IMG/VR virus record: IMGVR_UViG_3300045988_046995
Span: 1-27,865 of that record
Direction: 5' to 3' (one strand)
DNA: 27,865 nt
Origin: a virus
The notes under the pieces: generated by a model
Database searches by the model: none
What the model saw: only the letters and a program-made list of their open reading frames with translations
What the model was told of the DNA's origin: nothing
Shown: piece after piece, positions 2 through 27,841 of the stretch
Numbering within the stretch: the first letter of the stretch is position 1
How the letters are laid out: each line of letters begins with the position of its first letter
Program-made: the position numbers and the translations under genes

Positions 2-316
2 GTAGCTGAAACTTTTATATCTAATCCGAATAACTATCCTTGTATAAATCATAAGGATGAAAATAAATCAAATAATAATGTAAGTAATTTAGAATGGTGT
101 ACTTATAATTATAATAATAATTATGGAACTCATAATCTGCGAGCTGGATATAGTCATAAGAAACCAATACTGCAATTACTAAATGGAATAGTTATTAAAA
201 GATGGGATTCAGCAATAGATGCTGAGAGAGAACTAAATATACAATCTAGAAATATTGTAAAGGTTCTTAAAGGGCAGCGAAAAACAGCAGGAGGATATAT
301 GTGAACATATGAGTAA
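2..316 (+). CDS. HNH/NUMOD4-type homing endonuclease, 5'-truncated by the window edge (table 4)
   Basis: Reads VAETFISNPNNYPCINHKDENKSNNNVSNLEWC...GYM[TGA=W]TYE*. It is nearly identical at nucleotide level to 1063-1096 in the paralogue at 840-1406. The TGA at 302-304 falls in the typical C-terminal G-x-x-W-x-Y ending. Stop is TAA at 314-316. Confidence 0.8.
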
Positions 317-617
317 TAACGAAATTGTAGAAAAGTACTATCCATTTATTATGGAACTTAAGCAAAAATTTGGTGCAGATGATGACTGTGTTCAAATGAT
401 TTTTGTAGAAATACTAGAGTATTCAAATCCAAAATTAAATCAGCTTGATAGTAAAAATGAATTGAAATTTTGGATTACAAGATTATTTAAGAATTATTGG
501 TTTAGTAAAACAAGTAGATATTACTATACTTATAAGAAATATTATGAGATTGTTAAAGAACCACTTGAACAACAAAATGACGAATTGGAGGATTGATTAA
601 ATGAAACGGAAGATTAA
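309..617 (+). CDS. Sigma-70 region-2-like protein (ECF-like sigma2 domain only)
   Basis: DDDCVQMIFVEILEY...ELKFWITRLFKNYWFSKTSRYY resembles the region 2.1-2.4 pattern of group-4 sigma factors. No region 4 is present. The gene ends at TGA 594-596 under table 11 or at TAA 615-617 under table 4, so the 3' end is ambiguous. Confidence 0.5.
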
Positions 618-858
618 TATTGACGATTTACTTACTGAGTATGAAATAGACTATAGTATGTTTACAAATATGGATGATAGACTATTAAGTATATATCCAA
701 AATGACTTGAGCTTAATAAGGCAGATAAGACAGTAATCATATTATATGCTGAATATCACAGTTATAGAGAAGTGGGAAGAATATTAGGAATTAGTCATAC
801 TACCATAGCAAGGTGTATAAGTAATATTAGAAATAAAATATGTGGAAGGATATGTTAG
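601..858 (+). CDS. Sigma-70 region-4-like HTH protein (sigma4 domain only)
   Basis: DKTVIILYAEYHSYREVGRILGISHTTIARCISNIRNKI is a classic region 4.2 helix-turn-helix. It has its own ATG at 601, in a different frame from 309-617. There is one in-frame TGA at 703-705 (YPK[W]LEL). Stop is TAG at 856-858. Confidence 0.6.
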
Positions 859-1796: not shown

Positions 1797-2132
1797 ATGA
1801 AACAATTAACAGAAGAGCAGTTTAAATATTTAAGAGGATTTGAAGATAGATTTGTAACTGCAACTAAGTCTAATTATTGCAGAAATGTACAAAAGCAGGA
1901 TGTAATTAAGCTTAAAGAGATTTATGAATGTTTAATTGAACAAGAATATAGAATGAGCGTAGCTTGTGCTACTTGTATACTTAATCTTATAAAGAGGATT
2001 GCCCCAATCTATTTTGAATATCAAGAAAGACTAAAGGAAAATGAAAGTAAAGAATCAGGAACTGCCGAAGAAAACAGGGAGACCGAAAAAGGCAGAGGTA
2101 GAAAAGGAACAAATAGACGAAGTAAAGACTAA
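1797..2132 (+). CDS. Hypothetical protein upstream of TerS
   Basis: Open frame starting at ATG 1797 (the track start 1788 is GTG). The Cys-containing N-terminal part looks protein-like. The purine-rich C-terminus overlaps the TerS frame by 92 nt. Confidence 0.45.
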   Translation: MKQLTEEQFKYLRGFEDRFVTATKSNYCRNVQKQDVIKLKEIYECLIEQEYRMSVACATCILNLIKRIAPIYFEYQERLKENESKESGTAEENRETEKGRGRKGTNRRSKD

Positions 2133-2493
2133 ATATCTTTATGCTGCAAGGTTATTTAACAAAGGATGGTCAAGGAATAAAGTAAGTGAAGAACTTCAAA
2201 GTAAATATAATGTAAGCCAATCAACGGCTGCAAGATATATTGGAGAAGCTTATAAGATAATTGCTGAAAAGAATGATAACCTTATAAAAAATCTTAGACA
2301 TATACAATTATCAAGATTGGAATCATTACTGGATACTGCTATTAGTAAGGGAGATATTAGAGCTGCAAATGAGATTATTAAGACTATAAATAGTATGTTT
2401 GGATTAAATCAACCTGAGACTATTGTAGCTATTCAGAATAATGAAGTCCAGTTTAAATTTGGAGATCCAATTAACAATGACAAAAATATATAA
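2041..2493 (+). CDS. Terminase small subunit (putative)
   Basis: Has a basic GRPKK N-terminus, an HTH-like segment (WSRNKVSEELQSKYNVSQSTAARYIGEAY) and a helical oligomerisation-like tail. It lies immediately upstream of TerL and overlaps it. No TGA. Confidence 0.6.
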   Translation: MKVKNQELPKKTGRPKKAEVEKEQIDEVKTKYLYAARLFNKGWSRNKVSEELQSKYNVSQSTAARYIGEAYKIIAEKNDNLIKNLRHIQLSRLESLLDTAISKGDIRAANEIIKTINSMFGLNQPETIVAIQNNEVQFKFGDPINNDKNI

Positions 2494-3724
2494 AGGATAT
2501 AGCCCATTTATCTATCAATTAAAGGTACATACTGCTTTAGAGCACTCTTATAGGTCTGGAAAAATATTTACTGTAAAAGCAAAGAGACAATGTGGTAAAT
2601 CCTTTATGGCAGAAAATGAACTATTACGATTTTCAATTAACTATCCTGGAAGTATTAGCTGTATTGTTGAACCAACTCTTACTAACTCCAGAAAGATATT
2701 TAAAGAGTTAGTAAAGGCATTAGATGGCACAGATATTATTAAGAAAAAGAATGAATCTTTGCTTGAGATTGAATTTACTAATGGGAGTGAAATACTATTT
2801 AAATCTGCTGAGCAAAAAGATTCATTACGAGGATTTACAGTTAGTGGAATATTAGTAATTGACGAAGCTGCTTATATATCAGATGAAGTATACGAAATTT
2901 TAACACCTATCGCTGATGTATGGAATGCTCCAATACTTATAATTAGTACTCCAAGGTTTAGAGAAGGATTCTTTTATGAATGCTTTAAAAAGGGCTTTGA
3001 TGGTAATTTTAGTAAATATTATCAATCCTTTGATTGAGCATTAGAAGATACTTCTATGCTGTTAAGTGAGGATAAACTTGAAATGTATCGCCTTACAACC
3101 TCCAAAAATAAATTTAGAACTGAATATCTTGGAGAGTTTGCAGATGATGATGGTTGCCTATTTAATAATATAGCTAACTGTATAATTGATAAAAAACCTG
3201 AATATCATAATCTCTATATTGGAGTTGACTGGGCTACTGGTTCTGGTAAAGACTATACTTGTATTACAGCTTTAAATGAAAATGGGCAGATGGTCTTTAT
3301 AAAGTATTTTAACGACAAAACTCCAACAGAACAAGTTGATTTACTGACAAATATATTCACTGAGTATCAGGGATTTATAAAGATAGTTCAAGTTGAACAA
3401 AACTCAATAGGTTCAGTGTTTTATGATATTCTTGTAAAAAGGAATCCTAAATTACGGATAGTTAAGTTTTTAACTACTAATAAGTCTAAGGCAGCTATTG
3501 TAAATAAGCTACAAGCTGCATTAGAAAACGAAAAGATTGGTATTTTAAAGGATGATAAACTATTAAATGAATTAAGACTATATGAAGCCAGTTATAATCC
3601 AAAGACTGGAAATGTTAGTTATAATGCTCCATCTGGATTTAATGATGATACTTGTATATCTTTAATGTTAGCTTATGATGCTTTAAATACAAATAAAGGA
3701 ACTTATAATATTGCAATTAAATAA
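2477..3724 (+). CDS. terL: Terminase large subunit
   Basis: Walker A-like KAKRQCGKS, Walker B ILVIDEAAY, and nuclease-domain motifs GVDWATGSGKDY and FNDDTCISLMLAY. Track fragments 2441-3037 and 3056-3724 are in the same frame and are joined through a single TGA at 3035-3037 (YQSFD[W]ALED). Confidence 0.9.
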
Positions 3725-4508
3725 TGATAAAGAATTGGAATGAAATGGATTTATCTCATTATAAAAGACTGTTTGAGATAATACGAAAAGACTGGGAAAA
3801 TGAATTAGATATGAATTTAGCTATGGTATCTGTACTTAGTGATATACCTATGGAAGATATAACTAATATGGAAGTAAACAAGCTGCAAGAATTTATAAAT
3901 AATCTTAAATTTATAGAGACTCCATATAAGCCAAAAACCCCAGAAACTACTTATAATATTGGAAATAAAGAATATAAAGTCTTTTTTAATGTTAATAAGA
4001 TGACGGCCAGTCAATATATTGACTTTCAGAATTTTTATAAGCAGTATGATGATTTTATGCCTAATCTAGCAGCTTGTTTCTTACTACCTAATGGAAAGAA
4101 GTATGGAGAAGATTATGACCCTATTGATGAGGCAGAATTCTTAAATACTCATCTAACAATAGATATATTTTCAGACATAATGTTTTTTTTTGTAAACTTA
4201 TTGCAAGTATCAACGCTGAGTACCCTACACTCTTCGGAAAGGGAGATGAAGAAGAGACTAAGGAAAACCAAGGACAAACTGGAAAGGAGGAAACTTCTGA
4301 AGAGCTTAATACAGACGAGACGATTAATCCTTTTACTCAAAAATGAAGCTGAATTATCTGAATAGATAAGGTAAGTGAAGTTACCAGATTTAATTGGCAT
4401 CAGATATATGATATGCAGATTAAAGAGTTCCTGAATCTTATATGCTATGTTATAGATAAAGCTAATGAAGAAAATAGACAGATTGAAGAATGAAAAAGAA
4501 AACATTAA
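3724..4508 (+). CDS. Two-frame gene needing a -1 shift at the T9 run (4183-4191); function unknown, possibly a G/GT-type tail assembly chaperone
   Basis: Frame 0 (3724-4191) looks protein-like up to ...DIFSDIMFFF. After that it becomes a K/R/L-rich tail ending at TAG 4365. The -1 frame from 4191 reads CKLIASINAEYPTLFGKGDEEE...NPFTQK[W]S[W]II[W]IDKVSEVTRFNWHQIYDMQIKEFLNLICYVIDKANEENRQIEE[W]KRKH* and has no start codon of its own. Confidence 0.5.
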
Positions 4509-4509
4509 C

Positions 4510-4559
4510 TGTAACTTTTTTACTCATATTTGGTACTAAGATAATATAAAAAAGTTACA
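4510..4559. repeat. 50-nt imperfect palindrome, copy A (tgtaactttttta...taaaaaagttaca)
   Basis: The 13-bp terminal arms are perfectly complementary, and GTAC sits at the centre. It begins 1 nt after the stop at 4508. It belongs to the same family as 13911-13960 and 22857-22906. Confidence 0.75.
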
Positions 4560-4563
4560 TATA

Positions 4564-4590
4564 AAATAGGGAGTAAACCTCCCTATTTTC
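4564..4590 (+). terminator. Rho-independent terminator-like hairpin
   Basis: aaatagggag / ctccctattt forms a 10-bp stem with a 5-nt loop and a T-rich 3' side. It lies at the end of the terminase module. Confidence 0.6.
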
Positions 4591-4629
4591 ATTAGCTACT
4601 AATATATAAAATAATATATTTTAACAAAA

Positions 4630-5118
4630 ATGAATATTCAAGAATTAAAGTTCTCAAATTTAAGTGAGCTATTAAGGAAGTGAGGAGATCTTATAATTTC
4701 TCTTTATAGACAGGAATTAGTTAAAACCAGATCTGATGACACTGGAGCATTAGGTAATAGTTTAAACTATATAGTTGAGACTCAGGATGGAGACTATGAG
4801 GTTAATTTTAGCTTATTAGATTATTGAGAATATGTTGAAGAAGGCAGAGCTGCTGGTAAATTTCCTCCATTATCTGATATAAAGAGTTGGATTAAAACTA
4901 AGCCAGTAATTCCAAGACCTTATAATGGCAAGTTACCTACTGTAGATCAACTTGCATATTTAATTGGAAGAAAGATACATCTTCAAGGAACTCAAGGAAA
5001 ACATCCACTTGCTAATACTCTAGAATATATAGAGAACAACTATATGGAACTTCTTGATGATGCTATAACTAAAGACTTACAAGGACAAGTAGATTATTAT
5101 TTATTTAAAGACTTTTAA
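4630..5118 (+). CDS. HK97 gp10-like tail-completion/neck protein (putative)
   Basis: DTGALGNSLNYIVE...LLDY[W]EYVEEGRAAGKFPP resembles the TGxLxxSI...YAxYVExG pattern of gp10-family proteins. In-frame TGAs at 4681-4683 and 4825-4827 hide it from the ORF track. Stop is TAA at 5116-5118. Confidence 0.55.
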
Positions 5119-7303: not shown

Positions 7304-7783
7304 ATGGAAGTATATAAAGACATTAAAGGATATGAGGGACTTTACCAGATAAGTAATACTGGTAAAGTCTTCTCTATAAAAAACAATAAAGAACTGAAGA
7401 GTGGATATACTCCAGCTGGATATACAAAAGTTCAATTGTGAAAGAATAAGTCTGGCAAGTGATTCAATATTCATAGATTAGTTGCAGAAGCGTTTATTCC
7501 AAACGTAGAAAACTTACCACAAGTAAATCATATAAATGAGATAAAGGAGGATAATAGGGTTGATAATTTAGAATGATGTACAGCTCAATATAATGTTACT
7601 TATGGAAATAGATTAAATAATAATAAAAAACCTGTAATACAGGAAAGCTTAGATGGCACTTTTATAAAGAGATGAAATTCAATTGCTGATACTAAAAAAT
7701 ATGGGTTTGTTCCCCAAAATATAGGACAGTGTTGTATTGGTAATATTTCACAACATAAAGGATATATTTGAAAATATGCGTAA
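7304..7783 (+). CDS. HNH/NUMOD4-type homing endonuclease
   Basis: Contains [53 protein letters not shown][W]C and a C-terminal GYI[W]KYA*. All five Trp codons are TGA and none is TGG. It is free-standing between two tail genes. Confidence 0.85.
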
Positions 7784-13910: not shown

Positions 13911-13960
13911 TGTAACTTTTTTATTCTTATTAACTACAAAATATGAGTAAAAAGGTTACA
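13911..13960. repeat. 50-nt imperfect palindrome, copy B
   Basis: tgtaacttttttattc / gagtaaaaaggttaca forms a 16-bp stem if two G-U pairs are allowed. It begins 10 nt after the tape-measure stop. Its first 13 nt are identical to copy A. Confidence 0.75.
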
Positions 13961-20600: not shown

Positions 20601-21320
20601 ATGATTATACTTAAGAATACTAAAAATACACAAACTTTCTATGTTAGTAAGAAATGTGGTATTGAATCTGGACAACTTCCTGTTGGTTCTTATACTAAGA
20701 TTGAAGCAGATGAAAGATTCCAACCTAAAGGTAATTACATTTCTGAAGAGAAAGCAGAAGAGTTAATTAATACTAAAGTAACAGAAAGTATTGAAGATCA
20801 AGTTCCTCCTTTAGTAGATCAATCTATTGATGCTAAGCTTGTTCCAATTAATACTGAGATTACTAATCTTAAAGGGGAAGTTGAGGAGTTAGAAACTTCT
20901 AAGATGGAAGTATTCCAAGCTAATCAACCTCTATCTTTACATAGAAATGGAGAAGGTTTGCAACTATCTGTAGATTTAAGTAATTATGCAACTAAAGCAG
21001 AAATTCCTGATACTAGTGATTTTGCTACTAAAGAAGAGCTTACAGCTGTTGAAAGTGAAGTTGGAAATAATTCTTCTAAGATTACAGCTATTGAAAGCAA
21101 ACAAGAAGAGGATGGACTAAAGATTGATGCATTAGATAAGGAAGTTGGGACATTAGATGCAAATAAAGCAGACAAATCGGAACTATCTAATTATGTAACA
21201 TTAGAAGTATATAATGCTAAGGTTTCAGAATTAGAAGCTGCTATTCAAGCTTTACAGGCACAAATCGGAACTATCTCAACTACTCTTGATACAATTAATG
21301 GTGAAATTCCAAATGAATAG
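20601..21320 (+). CDS. Coiled-coil fibre-like protein (second fibre module)
   Basis: Shares motifs with the fibre at 16804-19236: [25 protein letters not shown] versus QAPLAFNEDKSQLSVDLSGY, and [17 protein letters not shown] versus KTKQEEDGDKIDSLDKE. No TGA. Confidence 0.65.
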
Positions 21321-21834
21321 AGTATTAACAAATTATCCTAACTATAGTGTATCTTCTACAGGAGATGTATATAGTAACCCATTGACTTTTAAAGATTCTA
21401 TTGGAAGAACCAGAAAACAAATACATAAAAAGCTAAAACAGCATATAGATAAATATGGCTATAATTATGTAATTCTAGTATCTGGCTTAGATAAACCTAA
21501 AGCTATTAAAGTTCACAGACTAGTAGCAGAAGCATTTATTCCAAATCCTGACAATCTACCATATGTTAACCATATAAATGAAAATAAGACAGATAATAGG
21601 GTAGAAAATTTAGAATGATGTGATACAAAGTATAATAATACATATGGAACTAGAATAAATAGATGTATTGATAAAATTAGTAAACCTGTAGGGCTATTTA
21701 TTAATGATTTACTAGTTAAAACATATAAAAATGCAATTGAAACATCAATAGATGGGTATACTCATAGTAGAGTTATAGATTGTCTTAAAGGAAGAACAGA
21801 CACTTATAAAGGGGTAAAATTTAAATATATCTAA
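21313..21834 (+). CDS. HNH/NUMOD4-type homing endonuclease
   Basis: Contains [14 protein letters not shown] and [34 protein letters not shown][W]C, with the TGA at 21616-21618, then continues to ...YKGVKFKYI*. It overlaps the stop of the upstream gene. Confidence 0.85.
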
Positions 21835-22856: not shown

Positions 22857-22906
22857 TGTCAGTTTTTATTTTTTCTTAGTACTTTGAGTGAGTAAAAAAC
22901 TTGACA
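22857..22906. repeat. 50-nt imperfect palindrome, copy C
   Basis: tgtcagttttta...taaaaaacttgaca, with AGTACT at the centre. It is 50 nt long like copies A and B and begins 4 nt after the stop at 22852. Confidence 0.65.
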
Positions 22907-22940
22907 TTAAAGGAGGCTTAGGTCTCCTTTAATTATTTTA
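22907..22940 (+). terminator. Rho-independent terminator-like hairpin
   Basis: ttaaaggag(gc) / (g)tctcctttaa forms a stem with a 4-nt loop, followed by ttatttta. It directly abuts palindrome C, the same arrangement as at 4510-4590. Confidence 0.6.
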
Positions 22941-23401: not shown

Positions 23402-24479
23402 AACAAAAGTACAATTAAGTGCAATTGATCCTGTTGTAGTGTCAAATTTAGTACTTCCTGTAGAATCGAGAAAAAGGGGTTCTGATTGGATTTCTTGGGG
23501 TGAAGATAATCGCTATCCATTATATCTATGGGATTTATACTTAAATGTAGCTACTCTTCAATCTATCATTAATGGGACTGCTGACTTTATTGTTGGTAAT
23601 GATGTTATATGTAATGCACCAGGATTTGAAGTAACTGTAAATAAGAAAGGTGAAACTATTATGGATATTATGCGTAAAGTATCTAAAGATAAGATGATTT
23701 TTGGAGGATATGCTTTACAAATAATTAGAGATATGTTAGGTAGAGTTTCAGAGATCTATCATCTTGACTTTATGAAGATTCGTTCTGATGAAAAGAATGA
23801 AGTATTCTATTATGCCGATGATTGGTCTGCTTGGTCTATTAAAGCTATCAAATATCCAAAATTTAATTATTCAGATGATAATCCTACAAGTGTTGTTTAT
23901 AATAAGGGCTATATAACAAGAAAAGTATATCCAGTCCCTGTTTATGGTGCAGCTATCCTATCTTGCGAAACTGAGAAGAATATTAATGAGTTCCATCTAA
24001 ATTCTCTTCATAATGGATTTATGGGCAATCTTATCATTAACTTTAATAATGGACAGCCTACAGACGAAGTTAAAGAAGAGATTGAGATGAATATCAATGA
24101 GAAATTCTCAGGATTTCAAAATGCTGGTAGAGTTCTTATTTCATATAATGATGATGAAACAAATAAGACTACTATTGAGCGTTTAGACTCTGATGATTTT
24201 GATGAGAAATATAGTGCTTTATCTGATAGGACAAGAGAACAGATATTCTGCGCATTTAGAGCTAATAGTGTACTTTTTGGCCTTAACTACTCAAGTGGAT
24301 TCAACGAACAAGAATTTAATGAAGCTTTTAAACTTTATAATCGTACAGTAGTTAGACCAATTCAGGTCGAAATAGTAGATACATTTGATAAGATATTTGG
24401 AATGAAAGGTTCAATAACTATAACTCCTTTTAGCTTAACTCCAAATGGACAAGAAGATAGCAAACAAAATGTTGAATAG
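23388..24479 (+). CDS. Portal protein (putative, small PBSX/P2-size class)
   Basis: The N-terminal region GSDWISWGEDNRYPLYLWDLYLNVATLQSIINGTADFIVG resembles the portal pattern (W..fG.dN.yP..l..l...s..h..ii..k). Likely start is ATG 23388. The 5 Trp codons are all TGG and there is no TGA. Confidence 0.65.
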   Translation: MSENKTKVQLSAIDPVVVSNLVLPVESRKRGSDWISWGEDNRYPLYLWDLYLNVATLQSIINGTADFIVGNDVICNAPGFEVTVNKKGETIMDIMRKVSKDKMIFGGYALQIIRDMLGRVSEIYHLDFMKIRSDEKNEVFYYADDWSAWSIKAIKYPKFNYSDDNPTSVVYNKGYITRKVYPVPVYGAAILSCETEKNINEFHLNSLHNGFMGNLIINFNNGQPTDEVKEEIEMNINEKFSGFQNAGRVLISYNDDETNKTTIERLDSDDFDEKYSALSDRTREQIFCAFRANSVLFGLNYSSGFNEQEFNEAFKLYNRTVVRPIQVEIVDTFDKIFGMKGSITITPFSLTPNGQEDSKQNVE

Positions 24480-25137
24480 CCATATTATATACTGTCATAA
24501 AAATCTATTAAACAATAAGCTATATTTTGGCATAACCTCTTTAAAACCAATAGAACGGTGAGGTTCTAAAGGGCAAGGTTATAAAAACAATAAACATTTT
24601 AATAGAGCAATTAAGTATTATGGGTGAGACAGTTTTGAACACATTATAGTTAAAGAAGGATTACCAGAAGCTTGTGCTAAAACATTAGAGAGAATATTAA
24701 TCTATAAGTATAACACTACCAATCCAAATAATGGCTATAATTTAACTGAAGGTGGAGAAGGAGTGCTTGGTTGGCATCACTCAGAGATTACCAAAGAAAA
24801 AATGAGCTTAAACGCAAAAGGAGTAAATAATAATTTTTATGGTAAATACCATACCAAAGACTCTAAACAGAAAATGCGTTTAGCTAGATTAGGTAAATCC
24901 CCTGCCAATAAAGGTACTTCTTTATCTGAAGAAGCTAAATTAGCTATATCTGAACAACGATGCAAAGAAGTTGTTCAATACGATTTAGATGGCAATATTA
25001 TAAACACATATAAATCAGCTAAAGAAGCTGGAGAGATTAATAACTTTTATAGTTCCAATATAACAAGAGCTTGTAGAACTGGTAAATCATATAAAAATTT
25101 TAATTGACAATATAAATATGGAACAAATGGATTTTAG
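24469..25137 (+). CDS. GIY-YIG homing endonuclease with NUMOD3 repeats and an IENR-like tail
   Basis: Contains IIYCHKN..NKLYFGIT (GIY...YIG), ER[W]GSKG, AIKYYG[W]DSFEH, NGYNLTEGG, the repeats HHSEITKEKMS / YHTKDSKQKMR / SLSEEAKLAIS, and the tail YKSAKEAGE...KNFN[W]QYKYGTNGF*. In-frame TGAs lie at 24559, 24625 and 25105. Confidence 0.85.
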
Positions 25138-27502: not shown

Positions 27503-27841
27503 ATGGATTCCAAATCAAGTAAATTGCTTCATAAGACTAAGAGGAAAGTAAGAAGTGAAGAATATTTAAAGTACCAGAGATATATCCGCTCAAAAGAATT
27601 TAAGGCGATTAGAGAGCAAGTTTTGTTGAGGGATAACTACCACTGCCAAACTTGTAATTGGTGCGTTGAGGAAGGCGGAAACAGGTCATTATCGGTACAT
27701 CATAAGAGGTATGACAATTTATATGAGGAGCAAAACCATTTGGAAGATTTGATAACATTATGTTCAGTATGTCATAAAGCTATACATTCGGCAGTAAGTA
27801 ATTATCAAAGGTTTAATAAAAAAGAAAAGGAGGGCAAATAA
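27503..27841 (+). CDS. Small HNH endonuclease (terminase-associated type)
   Basis: CQTCNWC...LSVHHKRY...LITLCSVCHKAIH is a CxxC...HH...CxxCH zinc-finger HNH motif. No TGA. Confidence 0.8.
   Translation: MDSKSSKLLHKTKRKVRSEEYLKYQRYIRSKEFKAIREQVLLRDNYHCQTCNWCVEEGGNRSLSVHHKRYDNLYEEQNHLEDLITLCSVCHKAIHSAVSNYQRFNKKEKEGK

Follow-up and report, generated by a model that had tools for sequence, protein, structure and literature searches.

Sigma factors are nearly always single chains, and the question raised by two small open reading frames (ORFs) of the viral record IMGVR_UViG_3300045988_046995 was whether a phage can make such a factor as two separate polypeptides. The window, that is, the whole stretch of 27,865 nt that was analyzed, carries near its left end ORF1 (309-617, + strand) and ORF2 (601-858, + strand), which had been read in the initial annotation as a sigma region-2-only and a sigma region-4-only protein. 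Based on profile searches, structure comparisons and the analysis of related loci, ORF1 and ORF2 are probably the two halves of a very divergent sigma-70-family factor of the extracytoplasmic function (ECF, sigma2 + sigma4) type, made as two polypeptides, of an uncultivated and TGA-recoded phage of about 30 kb.

The window is AT-rich (G+C 27-37%) with nearly all coding on the + strand, and the use of genetic code 4, in which TGA is read as Trp, was well supported. The total coding length of ORFs of at least 100 aa rose from 6244 aa under table 11 to 9644 aa when TGA was read as Trp. The long ORFs ended with 19 TAA, 4 TAG and no TGA stop codons, and their Trp residues were encoded by 46 TGA versus 65 TGG. 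Under code 4, ORF1 encodes 102 aa (309-596 and 95 aa under table 11), with an in-frame TGA (594-596, + strand) for W96 in its acidic tail and a TAA stop at 615-617, and ORF2 encodes 85 aa, comprising a connector remnant and a region-4-only helix-turn-helix (HTH). The in-frame TGA of ORF2 (703-705, + strand), at which the gene would stop under table 11 after starting at ATG 601, specifies W35 upstream of the HTH, a residue invariant across the family. In relatives, the W35 codon was TGA in 36 cases and TGG in 7, and the W96 codon was TGA in 28 and TGG in 9; since both in-frame TGAs are exchanged with TGG, both encode Trp.

The two genes share 17 nt (601-617, + strand), with ORF2 read in frame +1 relative to ORF1. 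In the ORF2 frame a TAA (598-600) directly abuts the ATG at 601, and no one frame joins ORF1 and ORF2, so the coordinates, the 17-nt overlap, the frame relation and the absence of a joining frame had been described accurately in every detail. A Shine-Dalgarno-like GGAGG was located within the ORF1 tail (587-591, + strand), 9 nt upstream of the ORF2 ATG, and its weight is uncertain because most other genes of the window carry no motif of this kind.

For ORF1, the best NCBIfam model was TIGR02937 (sigma70-ECF), which aligned residues 4-94 with model positions 4-104 (E 8e-4, 19.0 bits). The ORF1-type short family was matched to an ECF alignment by hhalign at 80% (E 1.4e-5), and the sigma2-like core of ORF1 (residues 3-63, 315-497, + strand) was aligned with residues 22-81 of E. 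coli RpoE, with DDDCVQMIFVEIL opposite the motif of region 2.1/2.2 and LKFWITRLFKN opposite that of region 2.3/2.4. The residues W55, K61, N62, W64, F65, S66, K67 and S69 were invariant in the family. Pfam Sigma70_r2 (PF04542) was matched by 22 of 106 short representatives of the ORF1 family (best 8.9e-6) and was by far the commonest family there. The AlphaFold2 (AF2) model of ORF1, with a predicted local distance difference test score (pLDDT) of 85.6, was all-helical (helices 3-21, 25-37, 40-48, 52-65 and 70-82), and Foldseek aligned it with the N-terminal halves of phage proteins of 160-232 aa among the viral structures of BFVD (template modeling score 0.64-0.74), one of which is annotated as an RpoE homologue. 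These results supported the assignment of ORF1 as a very divergent sigma region-2 domain, recognized by remote homology only. Some database variants of ORF1 were deviant: P0025-P0027 carry a 1-nt frameshift in an A-run near codon 49 that leads into the ORF2 frame and still end at the TAA before the ORF2 ATG, and P0001 is ORF1 joined in frame to an HNH remnant lying upstream. These variants are probably assembly errors or local variants.

In Pfam, ORF2 matched HTH_50 (E 5e-8), followed by PF08281 (Sigma70_r4_2) at E 4e-4 and 20.4 bits, under the cut-off of 25.7, and PF04545 (Sigma70_r4) at a sub-threshold E of 1.7e-3. Precomputed PF08281 matches were present on many close relatives of ORF2, for which the name "specialized sigma subunit" is used in some sources. 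Among NCBIfam models, TIGR02937 was the second best after a TyrR-type HTH model (E 2.6e-4, 20.7 bits), and its positions 117-161 covered the sigma4-like HTH of ORF2 (residues 37-80, 709-840, + strand). By hhalign, the ORF2 family scored 90% (E 1.4e-6) against ECF sigma4 and 96.5% against the C-terminus of single-chain, fused relatives. The structure was taken from P0032, a 98%-identical relative (AF2 pLDDT 75), in whose model residues 26-81 form four helices including the HTH. Foldseek retrieved sigmaE region 4, SigL region 4, SigW and other sigma factors with this model, and equally LuxR-type HTH domains, which are known to be structurally related to sigma4 domains. Judged by these profiles, ORF2 is a region-4-type HTH protein.

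The two halves were then considered as one factor. The ORF1 and ORF2 proteins concatenated in silico gave TIGR02937 as the best NCBIfam model in one stretch, residues 4-182 aligning with positions 4-161 of 165 (E 1.4e-9); the score of 37.8 bits was about the sum of the halves and just under the curated cut-off of 42.9, which the fused relative P0285 cleared with 44.1 bits. The break falls between model positions of about 104 and 117, within the sigma2-sigma4 connector; one stump of this connector is preserved as the ORF1 acidic tail (EPLEQQNDELEDWLNETED) and the other as the N-terminal ~25 residues of ORF2. In a search of 1.84 billion representative proteins with the ORF1 family (hmmsearch), 567 matches were obtained at E <=1e-3. 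Among the best 150 of them, which represent clusters at 50% identity, 113 were sigma2-only proteins of about 100 aa (85-135 aa) and 23 were at least 150 aa long (156-245 aa). Of these 23 long proteins, 22 combine an N-terminal ORF1-like domain with a C-terminal ORF2-like HTH of the pattern WYD..LF..Y..G.S......TGIS..S...TI. Such fused relatives (e.g. P0155, P0237 and P0285) were retrieved by the ORF1 family at E 1e-13 to 1e-7, and 11 of the 22 matched PHROG 1740, "RNA polymerase sigma factor", across both domains (best 1.4e-9). When the fused relatives were aligned with the ECF alignment by hhalign, they scored 96% (E 2.7e-9) over 154 collinear columns, compared with at most 1% (E at least 0.05) for the reversed and 30 column-shuffled controls.

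The genomic context of fused and split forms was compared in 71 diverse IMG/VR loci, fetched by a conserved motif of the family. A single fused ORF of 160-211 aa was present in 53 loci and a split gene in 12 (10 of these with the standard code), two loci (L072 and L078) had a sigma2-only gene with no partner within 400 nt, and four were cut by the contig end. The gene order of sigma gene(s), membrane protein, ORF5, small terminase and large terminase was common to fused and split loci, with large-terminase matches down to E 4e-104. By this gene order, the sigma gene or genes hold the same place throughout a broad phage lineage, and the fused and split forms are orthologues. The sigma domains claimed in the initial annotation were thus backed, though remotely, by TIGR02937, by hhalign and by the Sigma70_r2 matches in relatives, and the single-ORF version that it had proposed to look for in related phages exists as the fused gene of 160-211 aa at the same genomic position.

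The split itself proved to be inherited. ORF1 was followed by ORF2 in 42 of 42 related loci, all independently assembled; the overlap was the identical 17 nt in 36 and longer, with the frame unchanged, in 3. In the remaining L040-L042, a complete NUMOD4/HNH gene of ~165 aa stands between the halves, replaces the ORF1 tail and ends over the ORF2 start, and the relative frame of ORF2 differs. At the 13 distant split loci (12 from IMG/VR and one from a metagenome-assembled genome, MAG), a sigma2-ORF was likewise followed by a sigma4-ORF with an ATG start in the +1 frame; the overlap was 8-59 nt long and no slippery motif was common to them. A sequencing artefact and the conservation of one half alone, which had both been named as possible refutations, did not hold: the split recurred in 42 independent assemblies with no continuous ORF among close relatives, and both halves were conserved together. 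In metagenome proteins, the ORF1 family formed 31 clusters at 90% identity, nearly all of ~100 aa, and the ORF2 family formed 109 clusters of 81-89 aa, none of either being fused. The ratio of nonsynonymous to synonymous substitution (dN/dS) against relatives was 0.07-0.17 for ORF1 and 0.11-0.49 for ORF2; both ORFs are, by these comparisons, real genes under purifying selection and not chance ORFs.

In a neighbor-joining tree of the sigma2 domain with 174 leaves, the split forms grouped together with 16 parsimony changes, and nearest neighbors were two split forms in 120 pairs versus a split and a fused form in 6. The tree is crude and no count of events is claimed from it, and a few re-fusions or mis-scored fragments may be among its leaves. 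The simplest reading of the sequences would be one old insertion of 1 nt or deletion of 2 nt in the connector, followed by in-frame length changes only, and the +1 frame would be constant because of descent from this one ancestral indel.

The pair is flanked by the 3' part of an HNH/I-HmuI-like homing endonuclease gene (2-316, + strand) and by a NUMOD4-HNH-NUMOD1 homing endonuclease gene (840-1406, + strand); both had been noted in the initial annotation and were borne out by domain matches. Its suggestion that these genes caused the split was rejected. The upstream gene is absent in L001, L003 and L008 and the downstream gene in most relatives; the HNH-free genomes L001, L003 and L008 carry the same 17-nt overlap, and distant phages are also split. 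Since HNH-free genomes share the junction, the HNH genes are later, variable insertions.

Several results weigh against the assignment of the pair as a sigma factor. ORF1 and 26 close relatives were without any Pfam match, and PHROGs gave no sigma match for them either; the sigma2 half is currently unrecognized in annotation for this reason. The profile of the close ORF1 family retrieved no sigma factor from the PDB sequences, only a spurious Cdc13, and Foldseek of the high-confidence ORF1 model against PDB gave nothing below E = 2. All of the window's own proteins scored under the curated cut-offs of sigma models, and the fold of ORF2 alone cannot separate sigma4 from HTH domains of the LuxR/GerE or TyrR/Fis type. 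Of the seven ECF reference sequences behind the hhalign comparisons, five were unverified, RpoE being exact and AlgU coming from a PDB alignment. Finally, no cognate promoter motif was found for the sigma pair.

The halves might instead descend from a sigma factor and act apart, ORF2 on its own as an HTH regulator that activates or represses at phage operators and ORF1 as a sigma2 mimic on the beta-prime clamp helices which shuts off or modifies host transcription. The best single-family matches of ORF2 are to generic HTH domains (HTH_50, 5e-8; the TyrR HTH in PDB, 6e-4), its fold fits LuxR-type regulators as well as sigma4, conserved intergenic inverted repeats of ~50 nt could be operators, and the sigma2-only genes of L072 and L078 have no detectable partner in their vicinity. 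However, the order and adjacency of the halves are strict in 42 close and 13 distant split loci, the overlapping start and stop codons suggest coupled, stoichiometric expression, the fused orthologues hold both domains in one chain, and sigma-family signature residues are kept in both halves. Separate action is accordingly considered unlikely.

The constant frame relation, with ORF2 at +1 to ORF1 in 39 of 39 overlapping close relatives and 13 of 13 distant split loci, would also be expected if one full-length sigma factor were produced through programmed +1 frameshifting or transcriptional slippage in the overlap, the two ORFs then being an annotation artefact. This explanation is extremely improbable: the stretch open in both frames is only 17 nt in the window and is bounded by the TAA at 598-600, the overlap varies from 8 to 59 nt among lineages with no slippery sequence conserved, a ~165-aa HNH gene parts the halves of L040-L042 with ORF2 in a different relative frame, and every ORF2 has its own conserved ATG and the N-terminus MK.KINIDD. 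The chance that the locus is a decaying pseudogene, in which a sigma gene was recently broken by a frameshift, HNH damage or an assembly error, is next to negligible. Although the pair of the window is flanked by HNH genes and the 1-nt A-run frameshift occurs in a few database ORF1 variants (P0025-P0027), the same split was found in 42 independent assemblies, HNH-free genomes included, dN/dS was well under 1 for both ORFs, and the split is common to phages of ~30% identity that use the standard code.

On the preferred reading, an ECF-type sigma factor made as two polypeptides, the ancestral single gene survives as an ORF of 160-210 aa at the same position in related phages and is broken within the connector in the lineage of the window, where the upstream part closes with a short acidic tail and the downstream part begins at an ATG of its own, in the +1 frame and within the last 8-59 nt of the first ORF. 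A lone ancestral 1-nt insertion or 2-nt deletion would give exactly the geometry that was observed. The overlapping stop and start codons may couple the translation of ORF1 and ORF2 and provide about equal dosage. In ECF holoenzymes, as described in a published study (PMC6372665), regions 2 and 4 occupy the same RNA polymerase sites, and the connector the same path, as those of primary sigma factors. By analogy, ORF1 would bind the host RNA polymerase at its beta-prime clamp helices and serve the -10 element and melting, and ORF2 would sit on the beta flap with its HTH reading a -35-like element. Jointly, they might redirect the host polymerase to phage promoters, most likely those of the packaging and structural genes just downstream.

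Contigs with the sigma pair are ~30 kb long, which looks like the full genome size; the window spans the sigma genes through the endolysin, and the rest of the genome consists of a helicase-like gene of 572 aa, running leftward, plus a few small genes. The gene calls of relatives, which combined with the window account for the ~30 kb genome, included no RNA polymerase gene, so the host polymerase would have to be redirected. The conserved place directly upstream of the packaging genes suggests late-gene control. Under standard decoding ORF1 would lose only its 7-aa tail (stop 594-596), and ORF2 would be cut at codon 35, before the HTH. Because TGA 703-705 precedes the HTH, the full factor would form only once TGA is read as Trp, and it is conceivable, though distinctly doubtful, that a true two-subunit sigma factor of the ECF type, with its connector severed, serves a large clade of such uncultivated phages and that in the TGA-recoded members sigma assembly, and hence late transcription, is gated by the genetic code as well.

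Compared with known ECF sigma factors such as E. coli sigmaE and M. tuberculosis sigmaL, the pair has the same content of region 2 and region 4 and is collinear with the whole of TIGR02937; hhalign matched regions 2.1-2.4 with ORF1 at its DxxQ and W..R...N motifs, and region 4.2 with the HTH of ORF2. The single polypeptide of an ECF factor, in contrast, was not found, since ORF1 and ORF2 lie in separate frames and the split is kept in relatives. The pair also differs from ECF factors in the break within the connector, in its extreme divergence, in a motif of its own after region 2.4 (N.WFSKTSRYY) and in being phage-encoded. The single-chain phage orthologues consist of one ORF of 160-210 aa with an intact connector, whereas the lineage of the window has two overlapping ORFs.

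Sigma2 and sigma4 functions on two separate polypeptides are described for SigO-RsoA of B. subtilis in PMC7826278, and the title of Xue et al. 2016, as cited there, states that RsoA carries only a region-2.3-like segment. The pair of the window is similar in that adjacent, overlapping, same-strand genes supply the sigma2 and sigma4 domains and co-occur in 42 close and 13 distant split loci. Unlike the chromosomal SigO-RsoA, it is phage-borne, represents a clean cut of a canonical ECF-like architecture and has known fused orthologues, the existence of which argues for a split that arose independently of SigO-RsoA. In phage T4, gp33 is not known to carry a DNA-binding HTH or to be homologous to sigma4, the sliding clamp (gp45) is needed, and the genes of gp55 and gp33 do not lie next to each other. 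ORF2, in contrast, has a canonical sigma4-type HTH and its gene overlaps the sigma2 gene, so the pair is not of the T4 type, in which, according to a preprint (bioRxiv 10.1101/2024.09.12.612765), sigma2-like gp55 and a separate beta-flap-binding gp33 jointly take over the roles of sigma domains 2 and 4 at late genes. Small sigma2 + sigma4 factors from phages or phage-like elements that switch on late genes, namely Xpf of PBSX and other "positive control factor" late sigmas, are described in PMC10141391. The corresponding Xpf-type model NF005385 was weakly matched by fused relatives and by ORF2 (E 0.0015-0.11), a marginal range from which membership is not claimed, and Xpf-type factors are single-chain. 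In the full-text literature on split, bipartite or two-subunit sigma factors, no account of such a phage family was found.

If the reading is true, a conserved and widespread natural family with a cut connector would show that covalent linkage of the two sigma domains is dispensable. It would be a second natural type of two-subunit sigma factor beside SigO-RsoA, and the first with a clean cut between sigma2 and sigma4. The fused orthologues allow direct comparison and would offer a ready-made system for the role of the connector in initiation and promoter escape. The family would also show how small, abundant, TGA-recoded uncultivated phages may control the transcription of packaging and structural genes, and could be a source of orthogonal split-sigma parts, a kind that synthetic biologists construct artificially.

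Downstream of the sigma pair, ORF4 (1375-1707, + strand) encodes a small membrane protein of 110 aa with a conserved CxxC..W motif. Its homologues, identified by phmmer, stood directly downstream of the sigma gene(s) in 17 diverse loci, both split and fused, and in the same place in close relatives; its only Pfam match was a faint one to DUF1360 (E 0.4). ECF sigma genes usually precede a gene for a membrane anti-sigma factor, and by analogy with this layout ORF4 is, speculatively, a candidate regulatory partner. The module that follows (1797-3724, + strand) comprises ORF5 (1797-2132), a small-terminase-like gene (2041-2493) and the large terminase (2441-3724); it is syntenic with split and fused loci, and Terminase_6N was present in relatives. 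ORF5 encodes 111 aa with the motif NYCRN...C.TC and a basic tail, and its last 92 nt are shared with the beginning of the small-terminase-like gene. It is coding-conserved in divergent relatives and distant phages, and is missing from the precomputed gene calls of related contigs.

The load of homing endonucleases was high for the genome size, with four to five HNH/NUMOD ORFs and one GIY-YIG-like ORF (2-316, 840-1406, 7304-7783, 21286-21834, 24445-25137 and 27503-27841 in the window; also 4260-4770 in L040). The sigma locus is an insertion hot spot, the insertions lying upstream of ORF1, between the halves or downstream of ORF2, depending on the relative. The HNH ORFs 2-316 and 840-1406 showed ~74% DNA similarity to HNH genes of Bacteroides crAss-like, Staphylococcus, Enterococcus and Lactococcus phages. 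The end of the recognition helix of ORF2 (800-858) occurs in two versions, ...TTIARCISNIRNKICGRIC in the window and in other genomes with an HNH gene just downstream, and ...TTIQRFIKQIRERLC in most relatives. The TTIARCISNIRNKICGRIC version looks like a co-conversion tract that arrived with the endonuclease, and the difference between TTIARCISNIRNKICGRIC and TTIQRFIKQIRERLC might alter DNA specificity.

In relation to the host, tRNA scans of the window and relatives revealed no suppressor tRNA and no tRNA gene of any kind, which suggests that the host itself decodes TGA as Trp. ORF1, ORF2, three fused relatives and one distant split relative gave no informative match by tblastn against 50,697 GenBank phage records, so no cultured relative is known. 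A scan of 185,579 GTDB species genomes for prophage copies of the close family found nothing, and with a broader sub-family only one Clostridia-MAG contig was obtained, which is also split. In the divergent intergenic region upstream of the rightward early genes of L001 (~4780-4850), the sequence TTTG-N20-TATATTTG was present, which we take to resemble the -33/-7 promoter consensus of Bacteroidota. Together with the scarcity of Shine-Dalgarno motifs, this promoter-like sequence points weakly to a host among the Bacteroidota; such a host would be at odds with the required native decoding of TGA as Trp.

The distribution of TGA codons over the genome was uneven. The leftward 572-aa helicase-like replication gene of relatives (L001 2751-4469, - strand) used TGG for 5 of 5 Trp residues, and TGG was also the sole Trp codon of the two rightward genes that come first (59 and 79 aa). 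TGA set in with the 144-aa gene, around the sigma genes, and was common in structural genes; as an exception, a small leftward 53-aa gene also has one TGA. Avoidance of TGA by the replication gene together with its use in late genes matches what is reported for phages with a change of genetic code late in infection; if such a switch takes place, the TGA ahead of the ORF2 HTH would gate sigma assembly, a reading of low probability.

A scan of the window with the sigma-70 consensus gave fewer matches than shuffled controls. Two conserved intergenic elements were observed, lying before hairpins or right at start codons, for which no tie to the sigma pair was established. Elements of ~50 nt formed by an inverted repeat, TGTAACTTTTTTA-N24-TAAAAAAGTTACA (TGTAAC...GTTACA), occur in the window at 4510-4559, 13911-13960 and 22857-22906, with further copies in L001 (~4480-4530) and L018 (~2289), every copy being intergenic. 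The arms are exact 13-mers in two copies, and the loop is conserved too (…CTTAGTAC…ATATGAGTAAAAAAGTTACA). Terminator-like GC hairpins with a T-run follow two of the copies (4566-4596 and 22910-22935). These elements might serve as operators, belong to phage promoters or form RNA-processing hairpins, and their TGTAAC resembles the "AAC" -35 motif of ECF promoters. The 9-mer TATATTTTA was present in five copies on the + strand (six matches overall versus 3.1 expected), and the copies at 1712, 4615, 16783 and 22960 (+ strand) lie in short intergenic stretches just upstream of gene starts. It also precedes the ORF5 homologue in divergent relatives, and may be a -10/-7-like promoter element or a translation-initiation context.

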